From positions 1-16,266 of the forward strand of contig CAJOQB010000038.1 in assembly GCA_905236405.1 (NCBI GenBank): DNA of 16,266 bases, written 5' to 3'. This DNA comes from an uncultured Bacteroidales bacterium (GTDB lineage Bacteria > Bacteroidota > Bacteroidia > Bacteroidales > P3). The notes under the pieces are model-generated. The model was not told the origin of the DNA. It was given only the letters and a program-made list of their open reading frames with translations, and ran no database searches. Below, piece after piece: positions 371 through 16,266 of this stretch (positions are counted from its first letter, which is position 1; the number at the start of each line of letters is the position of its first letter). The position numbers were made by a program, and so were the translations under genes.

Positions 371-422
371 ATCTATCTATATTTGTATTGTTTATTATAC
401 ATTTAACATTGTTTAGCAACTG

Positions 423-453
423 CAAAGATAGACAAACTTTTTGAATCTGCAAC
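423..453 (-). promoter_or_regulatory. Candidate Bacteroidota-type promoter for iorA (-33 TTG, 19-nt spacer, -7 TAtcTTTG)
   Basis: The minus strand reads gTTGc, 19 nt, then TATCTTTG (complement of 423..430). This matches the Bacteroides -7 consensus TAnnTTTG. The box lies about 53 nt upstream of the iorA ATG at 370. Confidence 0.4.
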
Positions 454-473
454 ATTTTTCCTGTCGGCACTCC

Positions 474-1976: not shown

Positions 1977-1997
1977 GATTGTGTTTGTTTTTGTTGG

Positions 1998-2588
1998 TTA
2001 TTCCCTCCAGCGAATGCTTTCCACCAAGTGACGCAGGTCGTGCTGCAGATAGTCGAGCACCGGTGCAAGCGAGTCGTTGTTGGGTGTGCGGTCTAAGAAG
2101 AGCGCTCCGCGGAGGAAGTGGTTCGTGGTGTCGCTCACCCAGAACTGATAGGTTGAAGCCACCTTGCTACCCTTCAGTTGGTAGGTGGTGGCCACGATGT
2201 GGTTCGACGGGTCGAGATATTGTTTCTCGTCCACTCCCGACGAGAAGTCGAAATGCTGCGAGAGAAACTTGTACGAGGTGTCGACCTGGGCATGCCATTC
2301 GCCTGGCTCGAGAGCCTTGTAGGTGAGGAAGGCTGTGGCTTTGTAGCGGGGATAGTATAGGTCGATGTATTTCTCTCGGGGTTGGTCTTTTTTGATGTGC
2401 ACTTCGGCCTCGTCGGACGCTTCGAACACAAAGGGCAGTGCCGTGGTGTCCACTTTGTGGTAGCTTTGTTGAGGCATGTCCAACCGAAGGTATGCCTCGG
2501 GCTTGGGGCTGTAGTCGTCGCGGTGTCTACAGCTGACGGTTGCGGTCAGCAGGAGCAACGCAAAAAGCAAAGTCGATATTCTTCTCAT
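1998..2588 (-). CDS. gldD: GldD-like gliding-motility/T9SS-associated lipoprotein
   Basis: 196-aa ORF with a lipoprotein signal (LLLLTATVSC, lipobox Cys). Mature N-terminus PKPEAYLRLDMP and C-terminal QFWVSDTTNHFLRGALFLDRTPNNDSLAPVLDYLQHDLRHLVESIRW resemble the GldD family as I remember it (PKPKAYLRL.YP ... TDS..HFLRG.LYF...PN.DS). Assignment is from memory and has not been searched. Confidence 0.55.
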   Translation of the reverse strand: MRRISTLLFALLLLTATVSCRHRDDYSPKPEAYLRLDMPQQSYHKVDTTALPFVFEASDEAEVHIKKDQPREKYIDLYYPRYKATAFLTYKALEPGEWHAQVDTSYKFLSQHFDFSSGVDEKQYLDPSNHIVATTYQLKGSKVASTYQFWVSDTTNHFLRGALFLDRTPNNDSLAPVLDYLQHDLRHLVESIRWRE

Positions 2589-2617
2589 GATTGTTCAGAA
2601 TTGATGTATGGATACGC

Positions 2618-3115
2618 TTAGTTTCGTCTTGCGGCCACCTCGGTCAATGCCAGACAGATGGCCAACAGCAAAAAGCAGATAATGAGGATGGGGCTCATCC
2701 ACTTTATGATGTTGAAAACACTAAAGACTGTGATGATGGTCATTGCCAGATTGATAAAGAACGCCACCAGTCCACCTTGGATGCAGTAGATTTGGAAACC
2801 TTGCGGACTGAAATAGCCATCGCTGTCCATCCGTCCGTGTTTGATCCATTCTTGATAGGTGCGTCTTTTCGATTTGCGTATGCGCTGTTTTCTGCCCCAG
2901 TTGGGATGGGTGGATGCCAACCAGCACAACACTATCACACCAATCCCCAATGCGTGGTTGATGTATATCTGGCTTCGTCCCATAGAGTCGTTGGAGGAGA
3001 AAACTATCTCGTCAGGCAGATGGGGCACCATGATGATGGCCAAAACAAGGCCCCCCACCGCTATGGCAGCGGCGAGGGCCAAGAGTATGTAGAAAAGGGT
3101 TTTGTCGGTTTCCAT
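2618..3115 (-). CDS. Uncharacterised small integral membrane protein (about 4 TM segments)
   Basis: 165-aa ORF in the same-strand gene string, 11 nt after the permease stop. Hydrophobic segments are FYILLALAAAIAVGGLVLAIIMV, ALGIGVIVLCWLA, GGLVAFFINLAMTIITVFSVF and ILIICFLLLAICLAL, with a strongly basic loop GRKQRIRKSKRRTYQEW. The TM1-HLPDEI start weakly recalls DUF1648/SdpI-like proteins (unverified). Confidence 0.65.
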   Translation of the reverse strand: METDKTLFYILLALAAAIAVGGLVLAIIMVPHLPDEIVFSSNDSMGRSQIYINHALGIGVIVLCWLASTHPNWGRKQRIRKSKRRTYQEWIKHGRMDSDGYFSPQGFQIYCIQGGLVAFFINLAMTIITVFSVFNIIKWMSPILIICFLLLAICLALTEVAARRN

Positions 3116-3126
3116 AGGTCAATATG

Positions 3127-4329
3127 TTAGCTGCGGAACATCACCTTCTCGCTGTCGAACATCTTGGAGAGCCCGAAGATGGCGAGTGCAGTATAGATAA
3201 TGTTCGAACCGACTGTGATAATCATGGCGTTGGCCATGTTGGCATGGTTAAACACCGACGACATGTATTGAACGCTGTTGTAGACAGGAATCAGGTATGC
3301 CCACAACTGTTCGGGGGCACCGTCACCCAGCATGGGCGATAAACCCACCAACATGATGAGCAGCATCAGCGGCGTCACCATCGTGCCAGCGTTCTTCACA
3401 TCCTTGGCATAGGCTGAAATGATGGCGATGACAGACACCAAGACCAGCGTGGTGCTCAAGATGACGAACAAGAGACACAAGTAGTCGCCAGTTGTGTAGA
3501 GGTTAGAAGGAAGAGACAGTTCGTCGGAGTGAATCATCTTCGGCAGCGAAAGCATGATGCCGATGAAACTCGACAGGCCGCTCAGCAAAGCAAAGCACGA
3601 CAGTGCCACAATCTTGCCTAATGCCAGCTCGTGGCGTTTCAAGGGGGTGACGAGCAAGGTGGCCATGGTGCCACGCTCTTTCTCGCCAGCAATCGAAGTG
3701 GGAGCGATGGCCATACAGCCCGAGAAGAGGAGCATCACGATGAGCATGGGGATGATGCCGCTGAGCAGATTGCCTAAGAAGTCCTCTTCGGATATTTGGT
3801 CGAACATCTCGGGCTCCTCGCCGTCAACTTGGGCGTTGATGTCGAAGAGGTTCACTTTTGCGCTCTCCCAAGACTCCAGACCGGCACGGATGGCGTTATA
3901 GGCCGACTCGGCTTCGGGACATGCCGAGTTGTAATATATACGCACGTTGGGGGCGGGCTGTCCCGAGGCAGCGTTATAGCAGGCTGTTAGGCTGTCGAAG
4001 GCTGGGGGAAAGACCACATAGATAAGATTGTTGTCCTTGTCGGCAATCTCTTCCAGCATTGCATCGTGGTCGAACGTTCCTTCGTTGATTAGCATCGGAA
4101 TGTCTTGAATGGCGGGATAGATGGAAGGGGGCATGTTCTCTATCTTTGCCACGGTGATATTGTCGGGGTCGACTTGTATTTGTTTGTTGATGGCGTTGCC
4201 CATCAATGTATATATTAGGTATATCAGCAAACCCGGCATGATGATGGAAGTGAACACCAACGAGCGGTCGCCGAAGAAGCGGCGGCATTCCTTGCCTATG
4301 ATGGTGAGTGTATTGCTGTGTTGTTTCAT
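3127..4329 (-). CDS. ABC-2 type transporter permease, NatB-like, with a large extracytoplasmic loop after TM1
   Basis: 400-aa ORF. The N-terminus MKQHSNTLTIIGKECRRFFGDRSLVFTSIIMPGLLIYLIYTLMG matches the NatB/ABC-2 permease pattern. A soluble segment of about 140 aa follows, then 5 C-terminal TM helices. Its ATG overlaps the ancestral ATPase stop (ATGA). Confidence 0.85.
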   Translation of the reverse strand: MKQHSNTLTIIGKECRRFFGDRSLVFTSIIMPGLLIYLIYTLMGNAINKQIQVDPDNITVAKIENMPPSIYPAIQDIPMLINEGTFDHDAMLEEIADKDNNLIYVVFPPAFDSLTACYNAASGQPAPNVRIYYNSACPEAESAYNAIRAGLESWESAKVNLFDINAQVDGEEPEMFDQISEEDFLGNLLSGIIPMLIVMLLFSGCMAIAPTSIAGEKERGTMATLLVTPLKRHELALGKIVALSCFALLSGLSSFIGIMLSLPKMIHSDELSLPSNLYTTGDYLCLLFVILSTTLVLVSVIAIISAYAKDVKNAGTMVTPLMLLIMLVGLSPMLGDGAPEQLWAYLIPVYNSVQYMSSVFNHANMANAMIITVGSNIIYTALAIFGLSKMFDSEKVMFRS

Positions 4330-4457
4330 TGCAGGCCTCCTTTCTGTTCTATGTAGGCATTGTCACCTGTTTTGATTTCTTTGTAGATGTTGAAGAAGCG
4401 GTCTTCAAGGGGCAAGCCTTGGCAGATGCCTTCGAGCGTGTCGCAATGGGTCAGATG
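4326..4457 (-). pseudogene. Orphaned 3' coding remnant of the ABC ATPase gene, in frame and downstream of the internal TGA
   Basis: The ATPase frame continues past TGA (4458..4460) as HLTHCDTLEGICQGLPLEDRFFNIYKEIKTGDNAYIEQKGGLQ (43 codons, no Met). It ends at TGA 4326..4328, which overlaps the permease ATG 4327..4329. The GTLE...LED.F..I pattern is the usual C-terminal tail of NatA-type ATPases. Confidence 0.6.
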
Positions 4458-5165
4458 TCAGTCGATGATGATTACCACGCGGTCGCACAGCCGCTCCACC
4501 AGACTGAAGATATGGGTGGAGAGAATGATGGTCTTGCCCTGTTCACGCAATTCTTGTAGATAGTCGGTCACTGTTCGGGCGGTGATGACGTCGAGCCCGT
4601 TGGTGGGCTCGTCGAAGATGATGATTTCGGGGTCGTGAACCAGTGAAATCACCAACGAGGCTTTCTGCTTCATGCCGGTGCTGAGACTGGCCACCTTCAC
4701 TTCGGCAAACTGGCTGATGCCGAAGCGGTCGAAAAGCCGGCGTTTGCGGTCCTCGGCCACCACTTCGTCCACGCCGTGCAAGCGACTGAAGAAGTCGTAA
4801 AGATAGTTGGGGGTAAAGAAATCCTCCAGTTTCAGTTCGCTGGTGAGGAACCCTATCTTGCCCCGCACTTCCTCGGGTTGGCTGACGATGCTGGCACCGT
4901 CAATCAAGGCATCACCTTGGTCAGGTTTGATCAATGTGGCCAACATACGCAGCGTGGTGGTCTTGCCAGCCCCGTTGGGACCCAGCAGGCCGAAAATCTC
5001 GCCGCTGTAGGCATCGAACGACAGATCGTCAACGGCTTTCTTGTATCGCTTTTGTGATTGTTCAATTTTTTGCTGCTTACGTGACAGTTTGAATGTCTTG
5101 CAGAGGCCCTCCACATGAAGGATGGGCTGCTGCATATCCGTAGCGTTTGTTTCCTCGGGAATCAT
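4458..5165 (-). CDS. ABC transporter ATP-binding protein (NatA-like), C-terminally truncated by an in-frame TGA
   Basis: 235-aa ORF. Motifs: Walker A GPNGAGKTT, signature LSTGMKQK, Walker B IIIFDEPTNGLD, H-loop LSTHIF. It ends ...CDRVVIIID then TGA, where homologues normally continue for about 40 more residues. The ATG at 5163..5165 is 1 nt from the upstream RHH stop. An alternative start is M11 (MQQPILHVEGL). Confidence 0.9.
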   Translation of the reverse strand: MIPEETNATDMQQPILHVEGLCKTFKLSRKQQKIEQSQKRYKKAVDDLSFDAYSGEIFGLLGPNGAGKTTTLRMLATLIKPDQGDALIDGASIVSQPEEVRGKIGFLTSELKLEDFFTPNYLYDFFSRLHGVDEVVAEDRKRRLFDRFGISQFAEVKVASLSTGMKQKASLVISLVHDPEIIIFDEPTNGLDVITARTVTDYLQELREQGKTIILSTHIFSLVERLCDRVVIIID

Positions 5166-5166
5166 A

Positions 5167-5352
5167 TTATTCTTTGTCCTTTGATGTTGTTGTATTCTTT
5201 TTCTTGGGATAGCGTTTGGCTTTTTTCAGTGCTTCGGCAATAAGCCACTCCATCTGACCGTTGACGCTGCGGTACTCGTCGGCAGCCCACTTCTCGAGTG
5301 AGTCGTAGACTTCTTCGTCAATACGTAGAACGAATGTTTTCTTTGCAGCCAT
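5167..5352 (-). CDS. Arc/MetJ-type ribbon-helix-helix DNA-binding protein
   Basis: 61-aa ORF MAAKKTFVLRIDEEVYDSLEKWAADEYRSVNGQMEWLIAEALKKAKRY... It has a beta-strand (KTFVLRI) followed by two helices containing the RS.NGQ motif seen in Arc-like proteins, then a lysine-rich tail. Its stop abuts the ATPase start. Confidence 0.8.
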   Translation of the reverse strand: MAAKKTFVLRIDEEVYDSLEKWAADEYRSVNGQMEWLIAEALKKAKRYPKKKNTTTSKDKE

Positions 5353-5391
5353 GACAAACGGTTTAGGTGTTGTAAAACAAGGTGTGCTTTT

Positions 5392-6396
5392 TTATTGGTA
5401 CAACGTGCCAGTGTTAATGACAGGGCTGGCACTCTCGTCGGCACAGAGGACCACCAGCAGGTTCGACACCATGGTGGCTTTTTTCTCTTCGTCAAGTTCC
5501 ACGATGTGGTCTTCCGACAGTTTTTTCAGAGCCAGGTCGACCATGCTGACGGCACCTTCGACAATCTTTTCGCGTGCAGAGATGATGGCGTTGGCCTGTT
5601 GGCGACGAAGCATCACGCTGGCGATTTCAGCGGCATAGGCCAGGTAATTGATGCGGGCTTCCACCACTTCAATGCCGGCGATGCTCAAACGTTGACGAAT
5701 CTCATCTTCCAGTCGTTCGTTGATTTCCTCTCCACCGCTGCGGAGGGTCAGCTCGTCGCTGCCGCCGTCCATGTTGTCATATGCGTACATGCCTGCCACC
5801 TTACGGAGTGTGGCGTCGCTTTGCACGCTGACAAAATTGTCAAAGCTGTTCAGCGATTGCTCGGCTCCGTTTTCTGTCTTCGTCACATGTGAGTCGATGT
5901 CGAAGCAAGCACGGTAAGTGTCAGCAATACGCCATACAAGCACCAAGCCAATCATGATGGGGTTGCCGTTGCGGTCGTTGACTTTGATAGGCTCGACATC
6001 CATGTTACGGGCACGCAGCGACAATTTGCGTCGTCCGCAGAAAGGATTGATCCAGAAGAAGCCGTTGTCGCGTACCGTCCCGTGGTATTTTCCGAACAGG
6101 GTCAGCACAACCGACATGTTGGGCTGGATGATTTTCAGACCAACGAGATGGAGCAGCCATACCACAAAGAAGATAATGGCCAAGAAAATGGGTAGAGCAA
6201 TCCAACCCGTGGCTTCGGTGGATCCGTCGGCAGTGACCGTGGTCATGCAGTCCAGCATAGATAGCGATGCAATGATTAAGAAAAAGACCACAATCATGGC
6301 CAAGTTGATAAACAGATGCAGAAAGCCGTTGTTGGCGGCAGTCATCTTTCTGACAAATTCTTTTGTCTCAGTTGTTTTTTCGACAGTTGTATTCAT
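5392..6396 (-). CDS. SPFH/band-7 (stomatin/prohibitin-like) membrane protein
   Basis: The ORF track gives 5392..6471. I place the start at M26 (ATG = complement of 6394..6396, MNTTVEKTTETKEF...) because the longer form would run through the predicted promoter. There are two N-terminal TM segments (FLHLFINLAMIVVFFLIIASL and IALPIFLAIIFFVVWLLHLVGL). An SPFH core follows (IIQPNMSVVLTLFGKYHGT...GFFWINPF...VNDRNGNPIMIGLVLVWRI) and then a coiled region. Confidence 0.85.
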   Translation of the reverse strand: MNTTVEKTTETKEFVRKMTAANNGFLHLFINLAMIVVFFLIIASLSMLDCMTTVTADGSTEATGWIALPIFLAIIFFVVWLLHLVGLKIIQPNMSVVLTLFGKYHGTVRDNGFFWINPFCGRRKLSLRARNMDVEPIKVNDRNGNPIMIGLVLVWRIADTYRACFDIDSHVTKTENGAEQSLNSFDNFVSVQSDATLRKVAGMYAYDNMDGGSDELTLRSGGEEINERLEDEIRQRLSIAGIEVVEARINYLAYAAEIASVMLRRQQANAIISAREKIVEGAVSMVDLALKKLSEDHIVELDEEKKATMVSNLLVVLCADESASPVINTGTLYQ

Positions 6397-6441
6397 ATCA
6401 ATATTTATGTTTTGAATTAATATCATTTTAATATCACAATG

Positions 6442-6474
6442 CAAAGGTAAACGCTTTTTTTTATACCGCACAAA
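6442..6474 (-). promoter_or_regulatory. Candidate Bacteroidota promoter for the SPFH-led gene string (-33 TTTG, 21-nt spacer, -7 TAccTTTG)
   Basis: The minus strand reads TTTG (complement of 6471..6474), a 21-nt spacer, then TACCTTTG (complement of 6442..6449). Both boxes and the spacing fit the Bacteroides primary-sigma consensus. The -7 box is about 46 nt upstream of ATG 6396. Confidence 0.5.
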
Positions 6475-6485
6475 TTTTTTTTTCG

Positions 6486-6493
6486 TATTTTTG
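6486..6493 (+). promoter_or_regulatory. Candidate -7 box (TAttTTTG) for the M1 peptidase gene
   Basis: TATTTTTG at 6486..6493 matches TAnnTTTG, 38 nt upstream of ATG 6531. I found no clean -33 TTTG at the expected spacing, so confidence is moderate to low. Confidence 0.4.
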
Positions 6494-6530
6494 CACCTCG
6501 AACTTATTAACCGTTATAAACTAACTGTTT

Positions 6531-8861
6531 ATGAATCAATATTTTTTTTATCCGCTCGTGCTTTTCTTCCTCGTTTGGGGTACTCAAACGAGTGCACAGA
6601 CCCCTGGATATAGTAAAAATGTGACCGATTATATCGATGTGATGCACTACGATTTGGTGTTAGATATGGGTCATCAATATGAGAATCAGTTGGCAGGATG
6701 TGCTACATTGTATTTTTGGCTGTTGGCTCCTGTCGATTCTGTAGAGTTAAGTCTGGTGGCCTCACAAGTTGATTCTGTTTTTCTTGACCAGCAGTCAGTG
6801 GGCTATAGTTTCCGTGCGAGGTCGCTTTATGTCAACACATCGTTTGTTCCTGTGGGTAACATCGTAACATGTCGTATTTATTATCGTTCCAATGGGCATG
6901 TGGAACCCTATGGTTTCGGTGGACTGCATTTCGACCCCACCTTATATTATAATTTAGGTGTGGCTTTCGATGACAATCCTCACAACTATGGCAAGGTGCT
7001 CTTCCCGTGTCGAGACAATTTCCACGACAAGGCTACCTATACAGTCCATGCCACCGCACCTATAGGGTGGACCACCCAGTGCAGCGGTATGCTCGACAGT
7101 GTCGTCATCAATAACGATGGCAGCCAGACCACCCATTGGCGGCTCGACCAGCCTATCCCGACCTATTTATTGGGCATCGCCATGGCCAACTTCCACACGG
7201 TGGAACGAGATGTTCAAGGTGTTTATGGAAGTTATCCCGTCACGGTGGCATTCCGTACTGAGGACAGTCTCCAAGTGGCCACCTATTTCGAACTGCTCGA
7301 CGATGTGGTGCCGATGTTCGAACGTTGTTTCGGCCCTTATCGTTGGGGGCGCATCGGTTATGTGGGTACCACCAAGGGCTCGATGGAGCATGCCACCAAT
7401 ATTGCTTTGGTCAACGGATGTATCGCAGCCATCAACCATGAGCTGTGCCAATCGACCACATCCCATGAGTTGGGTCATGCTTGGTTCGGTAACCTGATTA
7501 CTTGTGAGACAGCCGACGAGATGTGGTTCAACGAGGGCGGTGCCACCTTTACCTCGGAAGTGGCCATCGAGGCGCTCTTTGGCAAGGACTATGCCAACGA
7601 TTTCTACCAGTCCAGTCTTGAGTCGGTGTTTCGAACCACCCATAGAAAGGATGGCGGTTATTACCCCCTCCAAGGACAATCCCACGCCAATGTCTATGGT
7701 AGCACCACCTACGACAAGGGAGGCATGGTGTGGCACTCTTTGCGTGGCTATTTGGGCGACAGCCTTTTCTATGCGACGATGCAGCAACTTTTCCTCCGCA
7801 ACGCATTTACCTCGATGAACGCCATCGCCATACGCGACAGCCTGTCGTTGTACAGCGGTACCGACCTTACCGACTTCTTCGATTTCCATGTATTCGGCCC
7901 GGGCTTCCAAGATTTCTATGTCGAGTCGATGCACAGTGGGCGGCAAGGCAACATCTATCAGACCACTGTGGAGTTGCGGCAGAAACTTGTCCATGCACCG
8001 CAGTATGCCAACTCCAACCGCATACCGCTCACCTTCGTTGGCGGTCAAAACCAGCGTCACACGTGTCTTGCCACCTTCGATGGAGCTTCGGCCACACTGA
8101 CGTTCCAGCTTCCTTTCGAGCCAAAGATTGTGCTGGTTGATTTCGACCGCACTTTCTCCGACGCTGTCACCAGCAACGAGATAGTGTTGGCTCCCAACGC
8201 CTCGGTGGTGACCGACGAGGTCATTCACTTCAAGACACTTCCCGCCACCCTTTCCGACACGGCACGTCTCTTTGTCGAGTTGCATTGGAGCGACCCCGAT
8301 CTCGATGGCAATCCAGGTATTGTCCGCACGTCGCACCACTATTGGGTTGTCCAAGGGCTGGTGCCCGACAGCAGTGTGCTGCGTGGTTATTTTGGATATG
8401 GCTCGTCGGGACAGTTCGACGAAGATTTGATGTATGGGTCGTCCTCACGCGATTCGGTGCGTCTGCTTTATCGACGCGACAGTCATAGCCCTTGGCAGGT
8501 GGTCAACTCATCGGTGGCCAATGGCTATTTGCTCTGCAAAAACATCTCCATGGGCGAATACACCGTTGCCATTGTCGACGAGAACCAACTTGAGGTGCCT
8601 ACACCGATTTCTTCGACAGCCAAGGTGAAAATTTTTCCTTGCCCCAGTAGAGACGGCATCACCGTCGACATCGAGGGCTATCAGGGCAAGGTCGATGTTA
8701 ATATCTTTGACCTTGGTGGTCGTCAAGTGGCACATTTTCAGGATCAGACAGTCGGCCAATATGTTCCCCTTAACCTTCCTTCGGGCACCTATGTGGTCAC
8801 CGTTTCCGACCGTTTTCATACCTTCAAATATGTCCAAAGATTGTTAATTAAGATTTTTTAA
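6531..8861 (+). CDS. Secreted M1-family zinc aminopeptidase with a C-terminal T9SS type-A sorting domain
   Basis: 776-aa ORF. Signal peptide MNQYFFYPLVLFFLVWGTQTSAQ. Gluzincin motif HELGH (7464..7478) with the third zinc ligand Glu exactly 18 residues later (NEGGATF, GAG at 7533..7535), giving HExxH-x18-E. The GxMEN-like exopeptidase motif reads GSMEH (7377..7391). The C-terminal 79 aa resemble a Por/T9SS CTD. Confidence 0.9.
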   Translation: MNQYFFYPLVLFFLVWGTQTSAQTPGYSKNVTDYIDVMHYDLVLDMGHQYENQLAGCATLYFWLLAPVDSVELSLVASQVDSVFLDQQSVGYSFRARSLYVNTSFVPVGNIVTCRIYYRSNGHVEPYGFGGLHFDPTLYYNLGVAFDDNPHNYGKVLFPCRDNFHDKATYTVHATAPIGWTTQCSGMLDSVVINNDGSQTTHWRLDQPIPTYLLGIAMANFHTVERDVQGVYGSYPVTVAFRTEDSLQVATYFELLDDVVPMFERCFGPYRWGRIGYVGTTKGSMEHATNIALVNGCIAAINHELCQSTTSHELGHAWFGNLITCETADEMWFNEGGATFTSEVAIEALFGKDYANDFYQSSLESVFRTTHRKDGGYYPLQGQSHANVYGSTTYDKGGMVWHSLRGYLGDSLFYATMQQLFLRNAFTSMNAIAIRDSLSLYSGTDLTDFFDFHVFGPGFQDFYVESMHSGRQGNIYQTTVELRQKLVHAPQYANSNRIPLTFVGGQNQRHTCLATFDGASATLTFQLPFEPKIVLVDFDRTFSDAVTSNEIVLAPNASVVTDEVIHFKTLPATLSDTARLFVELHWSDPDLDGNPGIVRTSHHYWVVQGLVPDSSVLRGYFGYGSSGQFDEDLMYGSSSRDSVRLLYRRDSHSPWQVVNSSVANGYLLCKNISMGEYTVAIVDENQLEVPTPISSTAKVKIFPCPSRDGITVDIEGYQGKVDVNIFDLGGRQVAHFQDQTVGQYVPLNLPSGTYVVTVSDRFHTFKYVQRLLIKIF
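8622..8858 (+). other. T9SS type-A C-terminal sorting domain of the M1 peptidase
   Basis: KVKIFPCPSRDGITVDIEGYQGKVDVNIFDLGGRQVAHFQDQTVGQYVPLNLPSGTYVVTVSDRFHTFKYVQRLLIKIF. This fits the (V/I)(Y/F)PNP-like start, the ...iyd..Gr.v.... middle, L..G.Y.v.v and a hydrophobic/basic end, as in TIGR04183-type CTDs. Confidence 0.7.
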
Positions 8862-8907
8862 CTATACCGCGTGTTTCTTTTTGGGGGGTTCATACGTCTA
8901 CACGTTC

Positions 8908-9495
8908 GTGATTCAAGAATCTGACATAAAACTCAACGAACTCGTTCGCCGCTGTCAGCACCATGATGCTGTAGCTCAGCGGCTGCTCTATGACCGCTAT
9001 AACAGGCTGTTATATGCTATATGTCTACGCTATTTGGGTTCACGTGACGAGGCTGACGATTTGTTGGTGGAATCGTTCGTCAAGATTTACCAACAGATCG
9101 AAGGATTCGGAGGCGACGAACGGGCTTTTGTGGCTTGGATGAAGCGTATCGTCATCAACGGGGCCATCGATATCATTCGCTACAGGCGTTACCGTGATCA
9201 CCTCGACGTCGATGACTCAGAAGCCATGGCCTCTGTTCGATGTGCCGACGACAATGGTATAGAAAGGTTTATGAATCGTGAACTTATCGACCGAGCCATG
9301 CAGCGGATTTCCGACATGTATCGGCAGACGTTGCTCCTGATAGCCGTCGACGGATACAGTTACACGGAGGTGGCCGAGATGCTTCAGCAGTCAGTCCCCT
9401 TGGTGAAGACACACTACTACAGGGCCTGCAATCAGTTGCGGAAGATTATCCGCAATCTGGATTACGAAACGTGGAAAGAGTACAGTGGAGAATAA
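8908..9495 (+). CDS. ECF-subfamily RNA polymerase sigma-70 factor (start codon uncertain: GTG 8908 or TTG 8881)
   Basis: Region 2: LLYDRYNRLLYAICLRYLGSRDEADDLLVESFVKIYQQIEGF...FVAWMKRIVINGAIDIIR. Region 4 helix-turn-helix: YRQTLLLIAVDGYSYTEVAEMLQQSVPLVKTHYYRACNQLRKII. There is no in-frame ATG upstream of region 2. In-frame candidates are TTG 8881 and GTG 8908; GTG gives the usual spacing before region 2. Confidence 0.85.
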   Translation: MIQESDIKLNELVRRCQHHDAVAQRLLYDRYNRLLYAICLRYLGSRDEADDLLVESFVKIYQQIEGFGGDERAFVAWMKRIVINGAIDIIRYRRYRDHLDVDDSEAMASVRCADDNGIERFMNRELIDRAMQRISDMYRQTLLLIAVDGYSYTEVAEMLQQSVPLVKTHYYRACNQLRKIIRNLDYETWKEYSGE

Positions 9496-9546
9496 CAATG
9501 TGAACATAAGAGCTGCTTCGGCAGTACCAAATATTAAACAGGAAAA

Positions 9547-10389
9547 ATGAAACAGAACGAATATAAAGACATCGAGCAATTGCTGCAGGACACCTACGGG
9601 CAGCAAGAAGTCGCCCCCGACAGCGACCTCTGGTCGCGTATCGCATCGCAAATGGAAACACCCGCTGTCCAACGTGGCCCATGGAAGAAGAAATCCACCG
9701 AGCTCATCATTGCGTTGGCTTCGTTGACGGCTGTGGTGACTACCATCCTTTTGGTCTTTCCTCCGAGCTCCTATCGCCAGCCCGACCCCATCGTCGCCGA
9801 GGTAACGACGGCTACTGTCACCGAACCATCACAGTCGGTGGCTGCCTCGACCGTTGCCGCCGCGCAACCCGAGGCCAAGACCGTTAAGGGAAAGGTTGTT
9901 TCCTCCACCACAGAACCTGCATCCTCATCCTCGCAGTTGGTAGCCGCACCTCGTACCGCTGCTAACCGTCCTGTGGTTGCCAGCCGAACCACTGTTGTTC
10001 CCTCCGCCGCACCTGCTGTGACGACAGTCGACCATCCTGCTGCCGACCCCGTGGCACCGTCGCAACCTACAGCCGGTGGCCAGACGGCTCCAGCCCCTGT
10101 CACACCCTCGGCTCCGACGAACTTTCCTACTGTGTCGCTGAATATTCCTAACGTCATCACCCCCAACGGCGACGGCATCAACGACCGTTTCGACATCGAG
10201 GGCATCCAGGATATCGACGACCTGAAGCTGCAGATTTTCGACCGTCGCGGTCATCTGCTCTACACCTCCAACCACTACAAGGGTGGCTACACCGGCGACG
10301 GCCTTGAAGACGGCACCTATATCTACAGCCTGACCTCAAGCAGTCGAGGCATCCAACGACGTGGGTCGTTGCTCATCAAGCGGAAGTGA
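9547..10389 (+). CDS. Single-pass anti-sigma-like membrane protein with a P/A/T/S/V-rich linker and a T9SS type-B (gliding-motility-associated, CHU_C-like) C-terminal domain
   Basis: 280-aa ORF starting 51 nt after the sigma stop. The hydrophilic N-terminus carries ...PDSDLWSRIASQM, a pattern common in Bacteroidota proteins encoded after ECF sigma genes. KKK followed by the hydrophobic LIIALASLTAVVTTILLVF gives an N-in topology. A low-complexity region of about 125 aa follows, then a terminal 81-aa CTD. Confidence 0.8.
   Translation: MKQNEYKDIEQLLQDTYGQQEVAPDSDLWSRIASQMETPAVQRGPWKKKSTELIIALASLTAVVTTILLVFPPSSYRQPDPIVAEVTTATVTEPSQSVAASTVAAAQPEAKTVKGKVVSSTTEPASSSSQLVAAPRTAANRPVVASRTTVVPSAAPAVTTVDHPAADPVAPSQPTAGGQTAPAPVTPSAPTNFPTVSLNIPNVITPNGDGINDRFDIEGIQDIDDLKLQIFDRRGHLLYTSNHYKGGYTGDGLEDGTYIYSLTSSSRGIQRRGSLLIKRK
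9766..10143 (+). repeat. Low-complexity P/A/T/S/V-rich linker coding region, probably disordered
   Basis: Translated: SSYRQPDPIVAEVTTATVTEPSQSVAASTVAAAQPEAKTVKGKVVSSTTEPASSSSQLVAAPRTAANRPVVASRTTVVPSAAPAVTTVDHPAADPVAPSQPTAGGQTAPAPVTPSAPTNFPTVSLN. The composition is biased, with no hydrophobic core pattern. Confidence 0.7.
10144..10386 (+). other. T9SS type-B sorting domain (TIGR04131 / CHU_C-like)
   Basis: IPNVITPNGDGINDRFDIEGIQDIDDLKLQIFDRRGHLLYTSNHYKGGYTGDGLEDGTYIYSLTSSSRGIQRRGSLLIKRK. This matches the hallmark P(N)(V/A)(F/I)TPNGDG(I/V)ND.F.I.G...... L.I(F/Y)(N/D)R.G..(V/L)(F/Y)......... G....G..L..G(T/V)Y(Y/I)Y.........G.(V/L).(L/I).R. Confidence 0.8.
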
Positions 10390-10423
10390 AAAGATAGTGG
10401 TTTCGATAATGCTGTTTGAAACA

Positions 10424-10466
10424 AAAACCTCGTTTTCGTTCGTACCGAAAACGAGGTTTTCGTTTG
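10424..10466 (+). terminator. Rho-independent-type terminator hairpin after the sigma/anti-sigma unit
   Basis: Perfect 15-bp stem: AAAACCTCGTTTTCG (10424..10438) pairs with CGAAAACGAGGTTTT (10446..10460). The loop is 7 nt (TTCGTAC). The hairpin is followed by CGTTTG. Four more base pairs are possible beyond one mismatch (10419..10422 with 10462..10465). The hairpin begins 34 nt after stop codon 10387..10389. Confidence 0.75.
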
Positions 10467-10585
10467 CAATGTGTTTATCGAAGGGTCGTTGGCTGTCGAT
10501 GGGGGAGGGTCGCCAACTTTAATTTCCATATGATACAATTTTATTGCCACAGTTACGTTTCTTAAATTATCAAAATAGGATATCT

Positions 10586-11380
10586 ATGCAACAATATCTT
10601 GACCTACTGCAACATGTGCTCGACCATGGCACACCCAAACAGGACCGCACCGGCACGGGCACCCGCTCGGTGTTCGGATACCAGATGCGGTTCGACCTGC
10701 AGAAAGGCTTTCCGCTGTTGACCACCAAGAAACTGCACCTGCGTTCCATCATCTACGAACTGTTGTGGTTCCTTCGTGGCGACACCAATGTGCAGTACCT
10801 CCACGACCACAAAGTGACGATATGGGACGAGTGGGCCGATGAGCAGGGCGACCTGGGCCCCATCTACGGCCATCAGTGGCGTTCGTGGGGATGTGCCGAC
10901 GGCAGTACGGTGGACCAGATAGGCCAGTTGGTGCATCAAATCAAGACCAACCCCGACTCGCGACGACTGCTGATTTCGGCATGGAACGTGGGCGAGTTGG
11001 AGCAGATGGCGTTGCCTCCCTGCCATATTATCTTCCAGTTCTATGTGGCCGACGGACGTCTGTCGTGCCAGCTCTACCAGCGCAGCGCCGACATCTTCCT
11101 TGGCGTGCCGTTCAACATTGCCAGCTATTCGTTGCTCACCATGATGCTGGCACAAGCCACGGGACTCCAGCCAGGCGAGTTCATCCATACGTTGGGCGAC
11201 GCCCATATCTACAACAACCACATAGAGCAGTGCCGCCTGCAGCTCACGAGGACACCTCGACCGCTGCCCACCATGCGGCTCAATCCCGACAAGAGAGATA
11301 TCTTTGGTTTCGACTACGACGATTTCACGCTGGAGGGCTACGACCCCCATCCACACATCAAAGGAGAGGTGAGCGTTTGA
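10586..11380 (+). CDS. thyA: Thymidylate synthase (ThyA, folate-dependent)
   Basis: [68 protein letters not shown]... is near-collinear with E. coli ThyA ([31 protein letters not shown]...). The catalytic Cys context is ALPPCH. I set the start at ATG 10586 rather than the track's upstream TTG at 10544. Confidence 0.95.
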
Positions 11381-11405
11381 CAACACAAATAAAGGAGAGA
11401 GAGGT

Positions 11406-12488
11406 ATGAACCGTAATAATTTCTGCATCATCATGGCGGGTGGCTTCGGAAGCCGTTTCTGGCCGCTGTGCGACACAGCTAACCCCAAGCAGTTTATCGA
11501 CATCTTGGGCAACGGACAGTCGATGTTGCAAAACACCTTCCACCGCTATGCTCAGGTGTGTCCTCGCGAGAACATCATCATCGTTACCGCCGAGGGCTAC
11601 GGCAAGAGGGTCCACGACCAGATACCTGACCTGCAACGCTACCAAGTGCTCGAGGAACCCATGCGTCGCAACACGGCTCCTTGTGTGGCTTGGGCCGCCT
11701 CGGTCATAGAGGGCATCAACCCTAACGCCAACATCATCGTCACCCCGTCGGACCACGCCATCTTTGGCGACCGTATGTTTCAGGAGAAGATGAACAAGGC
11801 GGTGGATGCTGTCAACCGTTTCGACTGGATTGTCACCGTCGGTGTCAGACCCACCAACCCCAACACCAAATACGGCTACATCCAGTTTGCCGAAAGTCCC
11901 TCGTGCCAAGACATGCCCGACCTTCACAAGGTTATCACCTTTACTGAGAAACCACCCATCGAGATGGCCCGTCAGTTCATCCAGACCGGCGAATTCTTCT
12001 GGAATGCCGGTATCTTTGTGTGGCGGCTCGAAGTGATGAGAGAAGCCTTCAAGTGCTACCTTCCCTCGGTGTACGAGTCAATGCACAACTTGGGTGCCGA
12101 CCTCGACAGAGAACAGCTGCTGCAGTGCTATACGCGATTGGACAACATCTCCATCGACTATGGCATCATCGAAAAGGCCGACAACGTCCATGTATTGGAA
12201 GCCGACTTCGGATGGTCCGATGTCGAGACATGGGAACTGCTCTACAATGCCAGCATCAAGGACCCCGACGGCAATGCTATCGTGTCGGGTGATGTGATGA
12301 CATACGATGTGAAGAACTGTGTCGTCAACGCCCCAGGAGTCAAACAGACGTTGGTGCTGCAAGGGCTCGACGGATACATCGTCACCGCCAGCAAGGATGT
12401 GCTCATGGTGTGCCGTCGCGACCAACAGTCTGACATCACCCGTTTTGCCACCGATTATGAACTGCGGAAACATCGCAAGCAATATTAA
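11406..12488 (+). CDS. manC: Mannose-1-phosphate guanylyltransferase (GDP-mannose pyrophosphorylase), short form without a C-terminal PMI/cupin domain
   Basis: The N-terminal nucleotidyltransferase motif is NFCIIMAGGFGSRFWPLCDTANPKQFIDILG. Length (360 aa) and downstream blocks (EPMRRNTAPCVAWA, TPSDHAI, YGYIQ, FTEKP, FFWNAGIFVW, SIDYGIIEKA) are typical of the ManC/RfbM family. Confidence 0.8.
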   Translation: MNRNNFCIIMAGGFGSRFWPLCDTANPKQFIDILGNGQSMLQNTFHRYAQVCPRENIIIVTAEGYGKRVHDQIPDLQRYQVLEEPMRRNTAPCVAWAASVIEGINPNANIIVTPSDHAIFGDRMFQEKMNKAVDAVNRFDWIVTVGVRPTNPNTKYGYIQFAESPSCQDMPDLHKVITFTEKPPIEMARQFIQTGEFFWNAGIFVWRLEVMREAFKCYLPSVYESMHNLGADLDREQLLQCYTRLDNISIDYGIIEKADNVHVLEADFGWSDVETWELLYNASIKDPDGNAIVSGDVMTYDVKNCVVNAPGVKQTLVLQGLDGYIVTASKDVLMVCRRDQQSDITRFATDYELRKHRKQY

Positions 12489-12512
12489 CATCGAAAAGTA
12501 ATACAACATTCA

Positions 12513-13913
12513 ATGATTAAGCATATCGAAATAGCCCGTCTGCTGAAGGGCGACAATGAACAACTGATGGGCACCAGCATCGAAGTGAAAGGCTGGGTGC
12601 GTACCAAACGCGGCAACAAGCATGTTGCCTTTATCGCGTTGAACGACGGTTCGACAATCAACAACCTGCAGGTGGTTGCCGACGTGGAACGTTTCGACGA
12701 TGAGCTCCTGAAACGGATTACCACAGGCGCCTGCCTCCATGTGACAGGCAAGCTGGTGGCTTCGCAAGGCAGCGGACAGAGCGTCGAGGTGCAGGCCGAA
12801 CAAATCGAAATCTACGGCGAGGCTTCCCCCGAGGACTATCCGCTCCAGAAGAAAGGCCACACCCCCGAGTTCCTGCGTAGCATCGCCCACATGCGTCCCC
12901 GCACCAACACCTATGGTGCCATCCTTCGTCTGCGTCACCACATGGCGTTCGCCATCCATAAATACTACAACGACCATGGCTTCTTCTACCTCCACACACC
13001 GCTGATTACCAGCAGCGATGCCGAAGGCGCTGGCGACATGTTCCATGTCACCACCCTCGACCTGAACCATCTTCCCATGACTGAAGAGGGTAAGGTGGAC
13101 TACGAGCAGGATTTCTTCGGCAAGCACACCAACCTTACCGTGTCGGGTCAGTTAGAGGGCGAGCTGGGTGCCTTGTCGTTGGGCAAGATATACACCTTCG
13201 GTCCCACCTTCCGTGCCGAGAACTCGAACACCCCGCGTCACTTGGCCGAGTTCTGGATGATTGAGCCCGAGATGGCTTTCTACGAACTGGAAGACAATAT
13301 GGACTTGGCCGAGGACTTCCTCAAGTACTTAATCAAGTATGCTATCGACAACTGCGAGGACGACCTTAAGTTCATGAACGATATGTGGGACAAGGAGCTG
13401 CTGGATCGTCTCCATTTCGTGCTCGAACATCCCTTTATCCGCCTGCCTTACACCGAGGCCATCGACATCCTGCAGAAGTCGGGACAGAAGTTCGAGTTCC
13501 CCGTCTATTGGGGTGTCGACCTCCAGTCGGAACACGAACGCTATCTGGTCGAGAAACATTTCAAATGCCCTGTTATCTTGATTGACTATCCTGCCGAAAT
13601 CAAGGCGTTCTATATGAAACAGAACGACGACGGCAAGACGGTGCGTGCCATGGATGTGCTCTTCCCAAAGATTGGCGAGATTATCGGCGGTTCGCAGCGT
13701 GAAGAGAACTACGACAAACTGATGAAGGCCATCACCGACCGCAACATCCACATGAAAGACATGTGGTGGTATCTCGACACCCGTCGTTGGGGTACCGCTC
13801 CTCACAGTGGTTTCGGCCTCGGCTTCGAGCGTCTCATGCTCTTCATCACCGGCATGTCCAACATCCGTGACGTCATCCCCTTCCCCCGTACGCCAAAGAA
13901 CGCAGAATTCTAA
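12513..13913 (+). CDS. asnS: Asparagine--tRNA ligase
   Basis: 466 aa, collinear with E. coli AsnS. Shared blocks: [15 protein letters not shown], class II motifs [21 protein letters not shown] and GGSQRE, and the C-terminus [40 protein letters not shown]. Confidence 0.95.
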
Positions 13914-13933
13914 TCCTTTAAAACCTTTATATT

Positions 13934-14365
13934 ATGTCCAAATTCCTTAATGAGTTCAAAGAGTTTGCCGTCAAAGGCAACATGATTGACATGGCTGTGG
14001 GTATCATCATCGGTGGTGCCTTCGGCAAAATCGTTTCTTCGTTAGTGAACGACATCATCATGCCACTGTTCGCCGCCATCATCGGCGATGGTGCTTTCAA
14101 GGACTTGTCCGTCACGTTGAAGCAGGCAGTTCTCGACCCAGCCACAGGCGAGGAAGTGAAAGCTGCCGTGATGTGGAACTACGGTGCTTTCGTTCAGGAG
14201 TGTGTCGACTTCCTGATTATTGCATTCGTTATTTTCTTGCTCATCAAAGGCATCAACAAGCTGAAAGAGGCTGGCAAGAAAGAGGAAGAGGCTCCTGCTG
14301 CTCCCGCTGGTCCCACTCAGGAAGAGCTGCTTGCCGAGATTCGCGACCTGCTGAAGAAAGACTGA
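13934..14365 (+). CDS. mscL: Large-conductance mechanosensitive channel
   Basis: [45 protein letters not shown]... and ...[13 protein letters not shown] closely parallel E. coli MscL ([44 protein letters not shown] ... LLTEIRDLLKE). Confidence 0.95.
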
Positions 14366-14395
14366 TGCTTCATCGGTTGAGTTAATGAATGGATT

Positions 14396-14427
14396 CCTCC
14401 CTCGCCACAAGGTGAGGGAGGTTTTTT
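14396..14427 (+). terminator. Rho-independent terminator after mscL
   Basis: CCTCCCTCGCC (14396..14406) pairs with GGTGAGGGAGG (14411..14421). The stem is 11 bp including one G-U pair, the loop is ACAA, and TTTTTT (14422..14427) follows directly. It lies 31 nt after the mscL stop. Confidence 0.8.
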
Positions 14428-14441
14428 GCCCTGAAAGAACG

Positions 14442-15410
14442 ATGTACACCGACCAAGACTATATGAGACGCTGTCTGCAGCTGGCTCGCAACGGGCTGGG
14501 CTATGTCCGTCCCAATCCCATGGTGGGTTGTGTGGTGGTCAGCGACGGCGAGGTGGTGGCCGAGGGGTTCCATCGGCAGCATGGCGGCTACCATGCCGAA
14601 CGCAACGCCATCCTCGATTGCCGCTGTCCCGAACGCATCGAAGGCAGTACACTCTATGTCAATCTGGAGCCTTGCAGCCATCAGGGGTTGACTCCGCCGT
14701 GTGCCGACCTGATTGTCGAACGAAAGGTGAGACGGGTGGTGGTGTGCAACGATGACCCCAATCCGCAAGTGTCGGGTAGGGGATACGAGAAACTGCGCTC
14801 CGCAGGCATCGAGGTGGTGACCCATGTGCTGGAACAGGAGGGCCGATTCCTGAATCGTCGTTTCTTCACCTTCATGGAACAACGTCGCCCCTATATCATC
14901 TTGAAGTGGGCCGAGACAGCCGACGGTCTGATGGATATCGACCGCGGCAGCGACCCGCAGGGCAGTTATTGGATTACCAACCCTCTGCTCAAACAGCTGT
15001 CCCATCGCTGGCGTACCGAAGAGGCCGCCATTTTGGTGGGCAGTGAGACCTACCTTAACGACCGTCCACAGCTGACGGCCCGTCTGTGGCACGGCAACCA
15101 ACCGCTCCGTCTGGTTTACGATCGGCGTGGACGGTTGGGCGAGGTGGACGGATTCACGGTGTTGCAACAACCGACGCTTTCCGAGGCGATGGAATGGCTA
15201 TATCAACAAAAGGTACAGTCGTTGATTGTCGAAGGAGGGCGGCATCTGCTCGACGCATTCTTGGCCGAAGGGCTGTGGGACGAGATTCGACGGCTGCGTG
15301 GCGACCAGTGCTTTGGCAAAGGTATGCCGGCACCGTCGTTGACAATGACACCCGACCGAACCGAGACTTTTGATAACAACCAAGTGGAGTGCTACTATCA
15401 TGTTCGATGA
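14442..15410 (+). CDS. ribD: Bifunctional riboflavin biosynthesis protein RibD (pyrimidine deaminase / uracil reductase)
   Basis: MYTDQDYMRRCLQLARNGLGYVRPNPMVGCVVV...GFHRQHGGYHAERNAI...LYVNLEPCSHQGLTPPCADLI gives the CDA-type zinc motifs HAE and PCxxxxxxPPC. The C-terminal reductase part is RPYIILKWAETADG... I set the start at ATG 14442 because the track's 14385 start would place the mscL terminator inside the CDS. Confidence 0.9.
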   Translation: MYTDQDYMRRCLQLARNGLGYVRPNPMVGCVVVSDGEVVAEGFHRQHGGYHAERNAILDCRCPERIEGSTLYVNLEPCSHQGLTPPCADLIVERKVRRVVVCNDDPNPQVSGRGYEKLRSAGIEVVTHVLEQEGRFLNRRFFTFMEQRRPYIILKWAETADGLMDIDRGSDPQGSYWITNPLLKQLSHRWRTEEAAILVGSETYLNDRPQLTARLWHGNQPLRLVYDRRGRLGEVDGFTVLQQPTLSEAMEWLYQQKVQSLIVEGGRHLLDAFLAEGLWDEIRRLRGDQCFGKGMPAPSLTMTPDRTETFDNNQVECYYHVR

Positions 15411-16014
15411 CACCTATCGCACCATAGCGGCTCCTGCCGAGGGAATCTATAAAGAGAAAGGCAGCCGTTTCCTTGCTTTTGCCATCCATGTGACGAGTGA
15501 ACAGGAGGTGAAAGGGCATTTGGAACGCCTGCGGAAGGAATACTTCGACGCCCGTCACCATTGCTATGCCTATATCTTGGGTCCCTACAAGGATGCCTAT
15601 CGTGCCAACGACGACGGCGAGCCTTCGGGCACAGGAGGCAAGCCCATTCACGGGCAACTGCTTTCGCTCGACCTGACCAACGTCTTGGTGGTGGTGGTAC
15701 GCTATTTCGGTGGCATCAAACTGGGGGTGTCGGGACTTATCAACGCCTATCGAACAGCTGCCCGTGATGCGTTGGATCATGCCACGATAGTGGAACGCAC
15801 CATCGACCGTCATTACCGTGTGCGGTTCGAGTACCCGTTGATGAACGATGTGATGAGACTCCTCAAGGAATACGACACGCCTCCTCGCAACCAGCAGTTC
15901 GACATGGACTGCTCGTTGGAGTTCTCCATCCGTCAGTCGCTCAGCATCCGCATCTACGATGCTTTTGTGCAACTGAGGGGGGTGGAGATAGAGGAGATTA
16001 CCGCTAATCTTTAA
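15400..16014 (+). CDS. yigZ: YigZ/IMPACT-family (UPF0029) protein
   Basis: MFDDTYRTI...YKEKGSRFLAFAIHVTSEQEV...EYFDARHHCYAYILG...DDGEPSGTGGKPI...VVVVRYFGGIKLGVSGLINAYR matches the YigZ family signature. ATG 15400 overlaps the ribD 3' end by 11 nt. The track's upstream TTG at 15370 is less likely. Confidence 0.8.
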   Translation: MFDDTYRTIAAPAEGIYKEKGSRFLAFAIHVTSEQEVKGHLERLRKEYFDARHHCYAYILGPYKDAYRANDDGEPSGTGGKPIHGQLLSLDLTNVLVVVVRYFGGIKLGVSGLINAYRTAARDALDHATIVERTIDRHYRVRFEYPLMNDVMRLLKEYDTPPRNQQFDMDCSLEFSIRQSLSIRIYDAFVQLRGVEIEEITANL

Positions 16015-16028
16015 CTGAAAACAAGGAA

Positions 16029-16266
16029 AATGTCTGATATATTATCCCAACTGAACGAGGCACAACGTGAGGCGGCGGCATGTACCGAGGGGCCTGTGAT
16101 GATTATCGCCGGTGCTGGCTCGGGCAAGACACGCACGCTCACTTATCGTATCGCCCACTTGATAGACAAAGGAGTGGATCCCTTCCATATTCTGGCACTC
16201 ACCTTCACCAACAAGGCGGCAGGCGAGATGAAGGAGCGCATCATCAAGCTGGTGGGCCCCGAGGCA
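16029..16266 (+). CDS. UvrD/PcrA/Rep-family ATP-dependent DNA helicase, N-terminal part (the gene continues beyond the window)
   Basis: My translation from ATG 16029 reads [79 protein letters not shown]. It shows LN..Q..A, Walker A GAGSGKTR and motif Ia TFTNKAA.EM. It is absent from the ORF track because it is open-ended. Confidence 0.85.

Follow-up and report, generated by a model that had tools for sequence, protein, structure and literature searches.

The stretch of DNA analysed here, which we call the window, covers positions 1 to 16,266 of a contig from an uncultured Bacteroidales bacterium (CAJOQB010000038.1). The gene under study (9547..10389, + strand) starts with an ATG and encodes 280 aa plus a stop codon, and its product is an anti-sigma-like single-pass protein that ends in a C-terminal domain (CTD) of type B that belongs to type IX secretion systems (T9SS). 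The NCBI annotation calls it only a 'gliding motility-associated C-terminal domain-containing protein'. Upstream lies a gene for an extracytoplasmic function (ECF) sigma factor (8908..9495, + strand), whose product matches Sigma70_r2 (55.7 bits), Sigma70_r4_2 (40.2 bits) and the ECF superfamily model TIGR02937 (76.5 bits, cutoff 42.9), and stays below the cutoff of TIGR02985 (74.9 vs 126.4 bits). The mechanical open reading frame (ORF) of the sigma gene opens at TTG 8881; GTG 8908, which gives 195 aa, is the likeliest start because it is favoured by the alignment of homologous sigma factors and by the 195-aa NCBI product MBQ2508462.1. Between the end of the sigma ORF at 9495 and the ORF 9547..10389 there is a gap of 51 nt, as an earlier note made from the letters of this DNA had stated, and the ORF ends and the sigma domain matches agree with that description. 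The protein belongs to a large family with a common architecture and a strict linkage to sigma genes, and its N-terminal module also heads proteins that end in an outer-membrane beta-barrel.

Four parts follow one another along the chain. The cytoplasmic N-terminal motif (aa 7-37, 9565..9657, + strand; consensus niDqlFkdkLsnyEvpPpagvWdkIadeL) is presumed to be the sigma-binding module. It contains the sequence DLWSRI (residues 27-32), and an AlphaFold2 model built with a 37-sequence family alignment folds the N-terminus into two short helices (7-17 and 26-36). Residues 1-78 have no match in Pfam or NCBIfam, even at E <= 10, the hidden Markov models (HMMs) of the classical anti-sigma domains (zf-HC2/ASD class I, RskA, FecR) find no match in the cytoplasmic part, and the comparison of the motif with PDB sequences gave nothing significant. 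A KKK triplet (47-49) precedes the single transmembrane helix (aa 53-71, 9703..9759, + strand), a signal-anchor with its N-terminus inside. The hydrophobic segment, LIIALASLTAVVTTILLVF, has a mean Kyte-Doolittle value of 2.65 and appears as a helix over 53-70 in the model, and the positive-inside signal is clear in the window protein, with four lysines or arginines (K/R) in the 10 residues before the helix and one after it. The next 127 aa (72-198, 9760..10140, + strand) form a disordered linker, presumably a tether spanning the periplasm, of which 76% is made of five residues (A 19%, P 16%, V 14%, T 14%, S 13%) and which is modelled without secondary structure, at a predicted local distance difference test score (pLDDT) of about 50.

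The chain closes with the type-B CTD (aa 199-280, 10141..10386, + strand), a confident beta domain in the model (pLDDT 92-98). It is recognised by PF13585 (CHU_C; 70.7 bits, E 1.2e-19, cutoff 27, residues 199-275, profile positions 2-84 of 86) and by TIGR04131 (48.5 bits, cutoff 35, residues 199-279, profile positions 2-85 of 85). The top two Foldseek matches in the PDB are T9SS CTDs, those of PorZ (5m11) and of NucA in a translocon complex (8glk_D), with a TM-score of 0.78 on the target, and one PDB sequence relative is significant, the type-B CTD of GhpA, a T9SS substrate of Aureispira (E 2.4e-10; the other listed matches have E >0.1). Between the membrane helix and this domain there is no passenger domain, only the disordered linker, and instead of the cleavable Sec signal peptide of a carrier protein there is a 52-aa hydrophilic N-terminus followed by a 19-residue helix. 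The earlier note had proposed this overall layout from the letters. Its hydrophilic N-terminus with DLWSRI and KKK, its one 19-residue transmembrane segment and its low-complexity linker are borne out by sequence, hydropathy and model alike. So is its type-B T9SS/CHU_C domain, for which both HMMs score above cutoff over the full length and which is also in the model, as claimed, the sole folded module outside the cytoplasm.

It had also been pointed out that translation from Met36 (ATG 9652) would turn the hydrophobic segment into an ordinary signal peptide. Met1 is favoured over Met36 because residues 1-37 are conserved among homologues with just 20-28% overall identity, W29 being invariant. 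Homologues have no conserved Met at the position of Met36, and the 19-residue hydrophobic core lacks an AXA-type (small-residue) cleavage site behind it. The Met36 start with a signal peptide is rejected on the grounds of the N-terminal conservation.

A homologue search returned proteins of 280-330 aa with the same four-part architecture, and a 36-position profile of the N-terminal motif, run against 1.84 billion proteins, yielded 1845 cluster representatives (E <= 1e-3). The family comprises at least 86 clusters at 50% identity with a CTD-type tail. Its Bacteroidales members come from metagenome-assembled genomes (MAGs) of horse faeces, buffalo caecum and yak rumen, one MAG provides a member from Hymenobacteraceae, and the evidence for Flavobacteriales consists of the source names on partner-type sigma proteins. 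The linkage to sigma genes is strict: 17 of 17 loci with the N-terminal motif, in otherwise unrelated neighbourhoods, have an adjacent sigma gene. These are the CTD-type loci (the window, L001/2, L003, L004, L005, L006/7, L008, L010, L013, L052, L088 and L091, of which L008, L010, L013 and L052 are from GTDB genomes, L088 was reached from the sigma side and L091 is a two-repeat member) and the barrel-type loci L089, L090 and L092. The gap from sigma to partner gene ranges from -13 to +19 nt in the homologues, with starts and stops often overlapping, and is +51 nt in the window. No ECF sigma gene turned up within 4 kb at the 76 further loci with type-B CTDs that came from genomes, and of about 85 genes for ordinary type-B-CTD cargo none stands directly behind an ECF sigma gene. 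The 76 control loci, out of 80 in a genome scan with the family alignment, are ordinary type-B cargo with classical signal peptides and folded passenger domains. No PorP_SprF gene is present in the gene tables of L001-L006, L088 and L091. Across the family (n = 96) the linker has a median length of 144 aa, a minimum of 113 and an interquartile range of 129-155, without conservation of its sequence. Since its length is constrained and its sequence is not, the linker behaves as expected of a spacer.

The N-terminal module is common to two kinds of protein. Among the best 150 matches to the motif profile, 86 end in a type-B CTD and many others in an outer-membrane beta-barrel. Pfam confirmed PF13585 in the CTD-type set and PF13568 (OMP_b-brl_2) in P0045, P0046 and P0164; P0080 matches PF13505 (OMP_b-brl), with PF13568 just under the cutoff. 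All three barrel-type loci looked up have their gene directly downstream of an ECF sigma gene. An HMM made from barrel-type proteins alone (60 motif copies from 22 proteins) scores aa 7-37 of the window protein at 22.6 bits, the best of 1000 shuffles reaching 16.9. Two barrel-type relatives have weak matches to NF052375 ('anti-sigma factor', E 0.017-0.085). The sigma factors are similarly mixed: CTD-linked and barrel-linked ones are 28-45% identical, the same range as among the CTD-linked ones, and the window sigma is 23-32% identical to other CTD-linked and 28-30% to barrel-linked sigmas. A homologue search with the window sigma sequence by itself gave 5 matches, and a profile of six partner sigmas gave 735. 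These sequences suggest a single sigma clade and a single N-terminal module that is joined to either of two C-terminal modules. No natural fusion of sigma and N-terminal motif, of the Dma3 type, occurs among the 187 proteins examined.

The number of motif copies before the membrane helix varies from 1 to 8 in tandem. Two to eight repeats, unusual for an anti-sigma domain, are present in P0045, P0046, P0048, P0059, P0060 and others, and P0051, P0055 and P0063 form a two-repeat CTD clade. Such repeats raise the question of whether several sigma molecules are held per tether, or whether different repeats touch sigma regions 2 and 4.

What is an anti-sigma-like protein with such a tail doing in the envelope? 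The barrel-tailed proteins lead to Dma1 (BT_4721), which is annotated as OMP_b-brl_2 and forms an operon with the ECF21 sigma factor Das1 (Pardue et al. 2024, PMC10927553). Dma1 consists of a transmembrane helix, a long disordered region and an 8-stranded barrel, and its first 40 aa alone pull down Das1 (PMC10927553). Full-length Dma1 is found in total membranes and its barrel in outer-membrane vesicles, and its proteolytic processing depends on the growth phase (PMC10927553). Reo and EcfO of B. fragilis and P. vulgatus are the orthologues of Dma1 and Das1 (PMC10927553), and they respond to stress on the outer membrane (PMC13114119). The Dma family is defined by its barrel, and T9SS and CTDs are unmentioned in that work (PMC10927553). 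In full-text searches of the literature, we found no paper that joins an anti-sigma factor with a type-B CTD; the one paper with both terms, a study of PorA, names them separately.

On balance, the window protein is probably a Dma-like anti-sigma factor that spans the envelope, with the barrel replaced by a type-B CTD that would dock at the outer membrane. Its anti-sigma role, which the earlier note had proposed, is well supported, both by the association with sigma genes (17 of 17 loci) and by the parallel with Dma1; from the Dma1/Reo literature come the expected binding of the sigma factor by the N-terminus and the expected topology involving both membranes. According to this model, 8908-9495 and 9547-10389 would form an ECF sigma/anti-sigma operon. 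The first ~40 residues, two short helices around Trp29, would keep the sigma factor on the inner membrane's cytoplasmic side, the single transmembrane helix would anchor the protein there, and the 127-residue disordered linker would cross the periplasm. The type-B CTD would then dock the far end at the outer membrane, either on the T9SS translocon or on a shuttle barrel of the PorP/SprF type; in the second case the barrel would be supplied in trans, in place of the one built into Dma1/Reo. A tether is supported because the linker is constrained in length and not in sequence, and because both kinds of C-terminal module are addressed to the outer membrane. When docking is lost, through damage to the outer membrane or because the T9SS type-B pathway is blocked or saturated, the tether might become open to periplasmic and intramembrane proteolysis and the sigma factor be freed, as proposed for Dma1. 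That the CTD engages the T9SS or a PorP-like barrel, and in which direction the signal runs, we infer. Even more tentatively, the protein might be a sentinel T9SS type-B substrate, a possible single polypeptide leading from the cytoplasmic sigma factor to the translocon or PorP-type shuttle in the outer membrane. A secretion-coupled checkpoint, the idea of the earlier note, is a plausible hypothesis.

Several observations weigh against this picture. Over the N-terminus there is no anti-sigma match in Pfam, NCBIfam or the PDB, sigma binding is argued from association and analogy, and the likeness to Dma1/Reo is one of architecture, drawn through the barrel-type proteins and not through the sequence of Dma1/Reo itself. 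The positive-inside signal is weak family-wide (K/R 0.68 before vs 1.23 after the helix). Linkers of the CTD type measure ~113-155 aa vs ~190-320 aa in the four barrel-type proteins checked. No PorP/SprF gene lies nearby among the ORFs of the window; orphan type-B substrates that have no adjoining sprF-like gene (Fjoh_1123/1720/4934) use a common shuttle, Fjoh_1677 (PMC12618676). The CTD itself gives the strongest reason for caution. We compared 109 sigma-linked CTDs with 89 type-B CTDs of cargo proteins, the latter being a set chosen by its similarity to the window CTD and biased to that extent. Both sets retain PNxxTPNGDGxND, WxG, GxYxY and the terminal R. The N-R-W-G turn (232-235) is nearly fixed in cargo (N 0.89, R 0.98, W 0.87, G 0.99), whereas in sigma-linked CTDs R falls to 0.21 and G to 0.31, and W is not one of the two commonest residues; Y244, N246 and G273, present in 0.87, 0.79 and 0.94 of cargo CTDs, are degenerate in the sigma-linked ones. 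All five conserved motifs (A-E) are each needed for secretion of the SprB CTD (PMC12618676). Since sigma-linked CTDs have lost the Trp of N-R-W-G, canonical recognition by the T9SS is not assured. The domain may be recognised differently, for example captured without being released, or it may be a purely periplasmic sensor.

In that last case, the anti-sigma factor would reside wholly at the inner membrane, as conventional single-pass anti-sigma factors do, its CTD-like beta-sandwich being a former secretion signal that senses the periplasm and no longer engages the T9SS; this is the main rival reading, which we nevertheless consider unlikely. The residue changes just listed (the missing Trp and the degenerate Y244, N246 and G273), the requirement for every motif in SprB and the missing PorP/SprF neighbour all count in its favour, as does the finding that the CTD of PorA signals from the periplasm, even when tethered to the inner membrane (PMC7712824, PMC12152298). 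So does the low score of many family CTDs, which fall under the TIGR04131 cutoff of 35 (24.4 bits for P0055, 32.8 for P0098), and annotation pipelines therefore probably under-count the subfamily. The window clade itself argues the other way. Its CTD has D-R-R-G (aa 232-235, 10240-10251) in place of the N-R-W-G of cargo, G instead of N246 and Y instead of W248, with PNxxTPNGDGxND, G250, GxYxY and R279 present; it exceeds both curated cutoffs over the full domain length, and CTDs of this clade score 17 to 36 bits higher with the cargo HMM than with an HMM of the diverged bulk of the family (the window-clade figure being +28 bits). A sensor at the inner membrane would moreover leave the 113-aa minimum of the linker hard to explain, and the sister architecture, with its outer-membrane barrel, speaks for selection on the C-terminal module to get to the outer membrane.

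The same architecture could be turned round, with the T9SS pulling on the tail in the periplasm or cutting it off; active secretion itself would then be what eliminates the anti-sigma factor and activates the sigma factor, in the manner of FlgM export. The T9SS, driven by the proton-motive force, does extract CTD proteins through SprA (PMC12618676), and the growth-phase-dependent processing of Dma1 (PMC10927553) would fit. We regard this version, a stronger form of the earlier note's idea, as improbable: a constitutively active T9SS would keep the sigma factor permanently on, and the direction of the signal is not something that can be read from sequence. The likeness to FlgM holds as a concept and is otherwise loose, since a membrane-anchored protein could not simply be exported and proteolysis would be needed besides. 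Least credible of all, in our judgement, is that the gene encodes a small protein, T9SS cargo or located at the surface, whose only tie to the sigma factor is co-transcription or regulation by it, the hydrophobic segment being a long or uncleaved signal peptide. The public annotation, limited to the gliding motility-associated C-terminal domain, and the lack of an anti-sigma HMM match would suit such a protein. But it would have no passenger domain to give it a cargo function, its 19-residue hydrophobic core has no AXA-type site, and its cytoplasmic motif, conserved across orders with W29 invariant, is confined to sigma-adjacent genes (17/17) and heads barrel-type anti-sigma proteins of the Dma architecture as well. 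A Dma-like anti-sigma factor docked at the outer membrane by its CTD remains the reading that we prefer.

The surroundings of the gene add some context. A candidate ECF-type promoter that would make the sigma gene autoregulated, TGTTTC-N17-CGTCT (8872..8899, + strand), lies ~10 nt before the GTG start, and the leader would therefore be very short. The motif TGCAAC-N16/17-[CA][GA]TCT precedes 5 of 14 homologous sigma genes (L004, L005, L006, L052 and L088, 42-49 nt before the sigma start), compared with 0.5% of random 123-nt windows; the window and L001 have a looser version, TGTTT(A)C...CGTC[TC]. This occurrence is consistent with autoregulation of the sigma gene. T9SS genes of F. psychrophilum are driven by an ECF-type promoter class, SM6, whose -10 box has CGT; the same class serves the genes for two Band-7 proteins and an ABC ATPase, and also the ECF/anti-sigma pair THC0290_1774/1773 (PMC9723704). 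Upstream of the sigma gene, at a distance of 46 nt if GTG 8908 is used, ends an M1-family metallopeptidase gene with a type-A T9SS CTD (6531..8861, + strand; Peptidase_M1 77 bits, TIGR04183 27.5 bits, cutoff 23). The triad of peptidase, sigma factor and CTD protein recurs in L001/L002, L003 and L013 (peptidase at 2158-4383 in L001, 2127-4370 in L003 and 956-3361 in L013), that is, in four diverged Bacteroidales genomes including the window, with anti-sigma proteins that are just ~25% identical. The metallopeptidase may be co-regulated with the sigma/anti-sigma pair or belong to its regulon. On the reverse strand are genes for the gliding-motility lipoprotein GldD (1998-2588, 164 bits), an ABC-2 permease and ABC ATPase pair (3127-4329 and 4458-5165) and a Band 7/SPFH protein (5392-6471), with a 165-aa ORF without a Pfam match between GldD and the permease (2618-3115, - strand). 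The organism very probably has a T9SS, because a peptidase with a type-A CTD is encoded next door and GldD is encoded in the window.

Downstream, a terminator-like hairpin (10424..10460, + strand) with a perfect 15-bp stem and a 7-nt loop would close the sigma/anti-sigma operon. Its folding free energy (dG) is -30.2 kcal/mol (z -4.5), and 0 of 200 shuffles were equally stable. The T-tract behind it is interrupted (UUUUCGUUUGC), which is why a scan for consensus terminators passed over it. The thyA gene follows (PF00303, thymidylate synthase, 428 bits), and no large ORF in the window matches the PorP/SprF family. A terminator, thyA and the lack of an adjoining PorP/SprF gene had all been noted before, and the hairpin, the PF00303 match and the family searches concur.

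Little is understood of how Bacteroidota keep watch on their T9SS and outer membrane; PorXY-SigP with PorA in P. gingivalis and, for outer-membrane stress, Dma1/Reo are the routes known so far. That an anti-sigma factor can be tied to the outer membrane is already established by Dma/Reo, a precedent that the earlier note missed together with the large family. What this family offers is a concrete and genetically tractable candidate for a link from T9SS or outer-membrane docking to transcription, and it suggests an undescribed way in which secretion, or the condition of the outer membrane, is tied to gene control in Bacteroidota. With it, the Dma concept extends beyond barrel tails to an architecture made of modules, and it challenges the textbook description of T9SS CTD proteins as soluble periplasmic intermediates cleaved from a Sec signal. 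With current annotations ('gliding motility-associated C-terminal domain', 'T9SS type B sorting domain'), surveys count such proteins as cargo and miss regulators. If the sentinel proposal were true, T9SS capacity or outer-membrane integrity would be read directly as ECF sigma activity, and the protein would be the first to engage the T9SS while keeping its inner-membrane anchor. It and the barrel-type Dma proteins would make up a class of modular anti-sigma factors that span the envelope, where a barrel inserted by the beta-barrel assembly machinery (BAM) and a T9SS CTD would report on different routes of export and assembly.

Comparison with known systems places the protein between two of them. 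Like Dma/Reo, it is the product of a gene that immediately follows an ECF sigma gene of Bacteroidota, it has a cytoplasmic N-terminus of ~40 aa, one transmembrane helix and a long disordered region predicted to be periplasmic, and its C-terminal module appears destined for the outer membrane; its N-terminal motif also matches a profile derived from barrel-type sigma-adjacent proteins alone. Unlike Dma, it has no match to the 8-stranded OMP_b-brl_2 barrel and an 82-aa type-B CTD instead, its linker measures 127 aa vs ~190-320 aa in the barrel-type proteins checked, and any hold on the outer membrane would have to be non-covalent and provided through the T9SS or a PorP-like protein, not achieved by BAM-type insertion. 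In FecA-FecR-FecI and RseA/DegS/RseP the state of the outer membrane also reaches an ECF sigma factor through a single-pass anti-sigma factor (discussed in PMC10927553). As in these systems, release of the sigma factor would probably occur by sequential proteolysis, but the window protein has no FecR, zf-HC2 or RseA-type domain in Pfam or NCBIfam searches, and the receptor and anti-sigma functions would be combined in a single chain or shared between it and a T9SS shuttle. FlgM is soluble and exported whole, whereas the window protein is anchored in the membrane, and the likeness is conceptual only.

PorA-PorXY-SigP of Porphyromonas gingivalis offers the precedent of a nearly passenger-free T9SS CTD that acts as a regulatory signal ending at an ECF sigma factor (PMC7712824, PMC12152298). 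The CTD of PorA, however, is of type A; PorA loses its signal peptide by cleavage and targets the sensor kinase PorY in trans, whereas here the CTD and the presumed sigma-binding module lie on one polypeptide and no two-component system intervenes. As for type-B cargo, the CTDs of such proteins are not cleaved and stay on outer-membrane barrels of the PorP/SprF type, as in PG1035-PorP-PorE and SprB-SprF (PMC9143113). Like SprB/SprF, PG1035/PorP and the Fjoh orphans, the window protein has a full-length TIGR04131/PF13585 domain at its extreme C-terminus, the CTDs of its family keep PNxxTPNGDGxND, WxG, GxYxY and the terminal R, and like the orphans its gene has no adjoining sprF-like gene. It differs from such cargo in having neither a cleavable signal peptide nor a passenger but a sigma-linked cytoplasmic motif and a membrane anchor, and sigma-linked CTDs have lost the Trp of N-R-W-G. 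By the barrel that defines Dma the 280-aa protein is not a member of that family, nor is it an ordinary T9SS cargo; it represents a widespread and so far undescribed combination of both.

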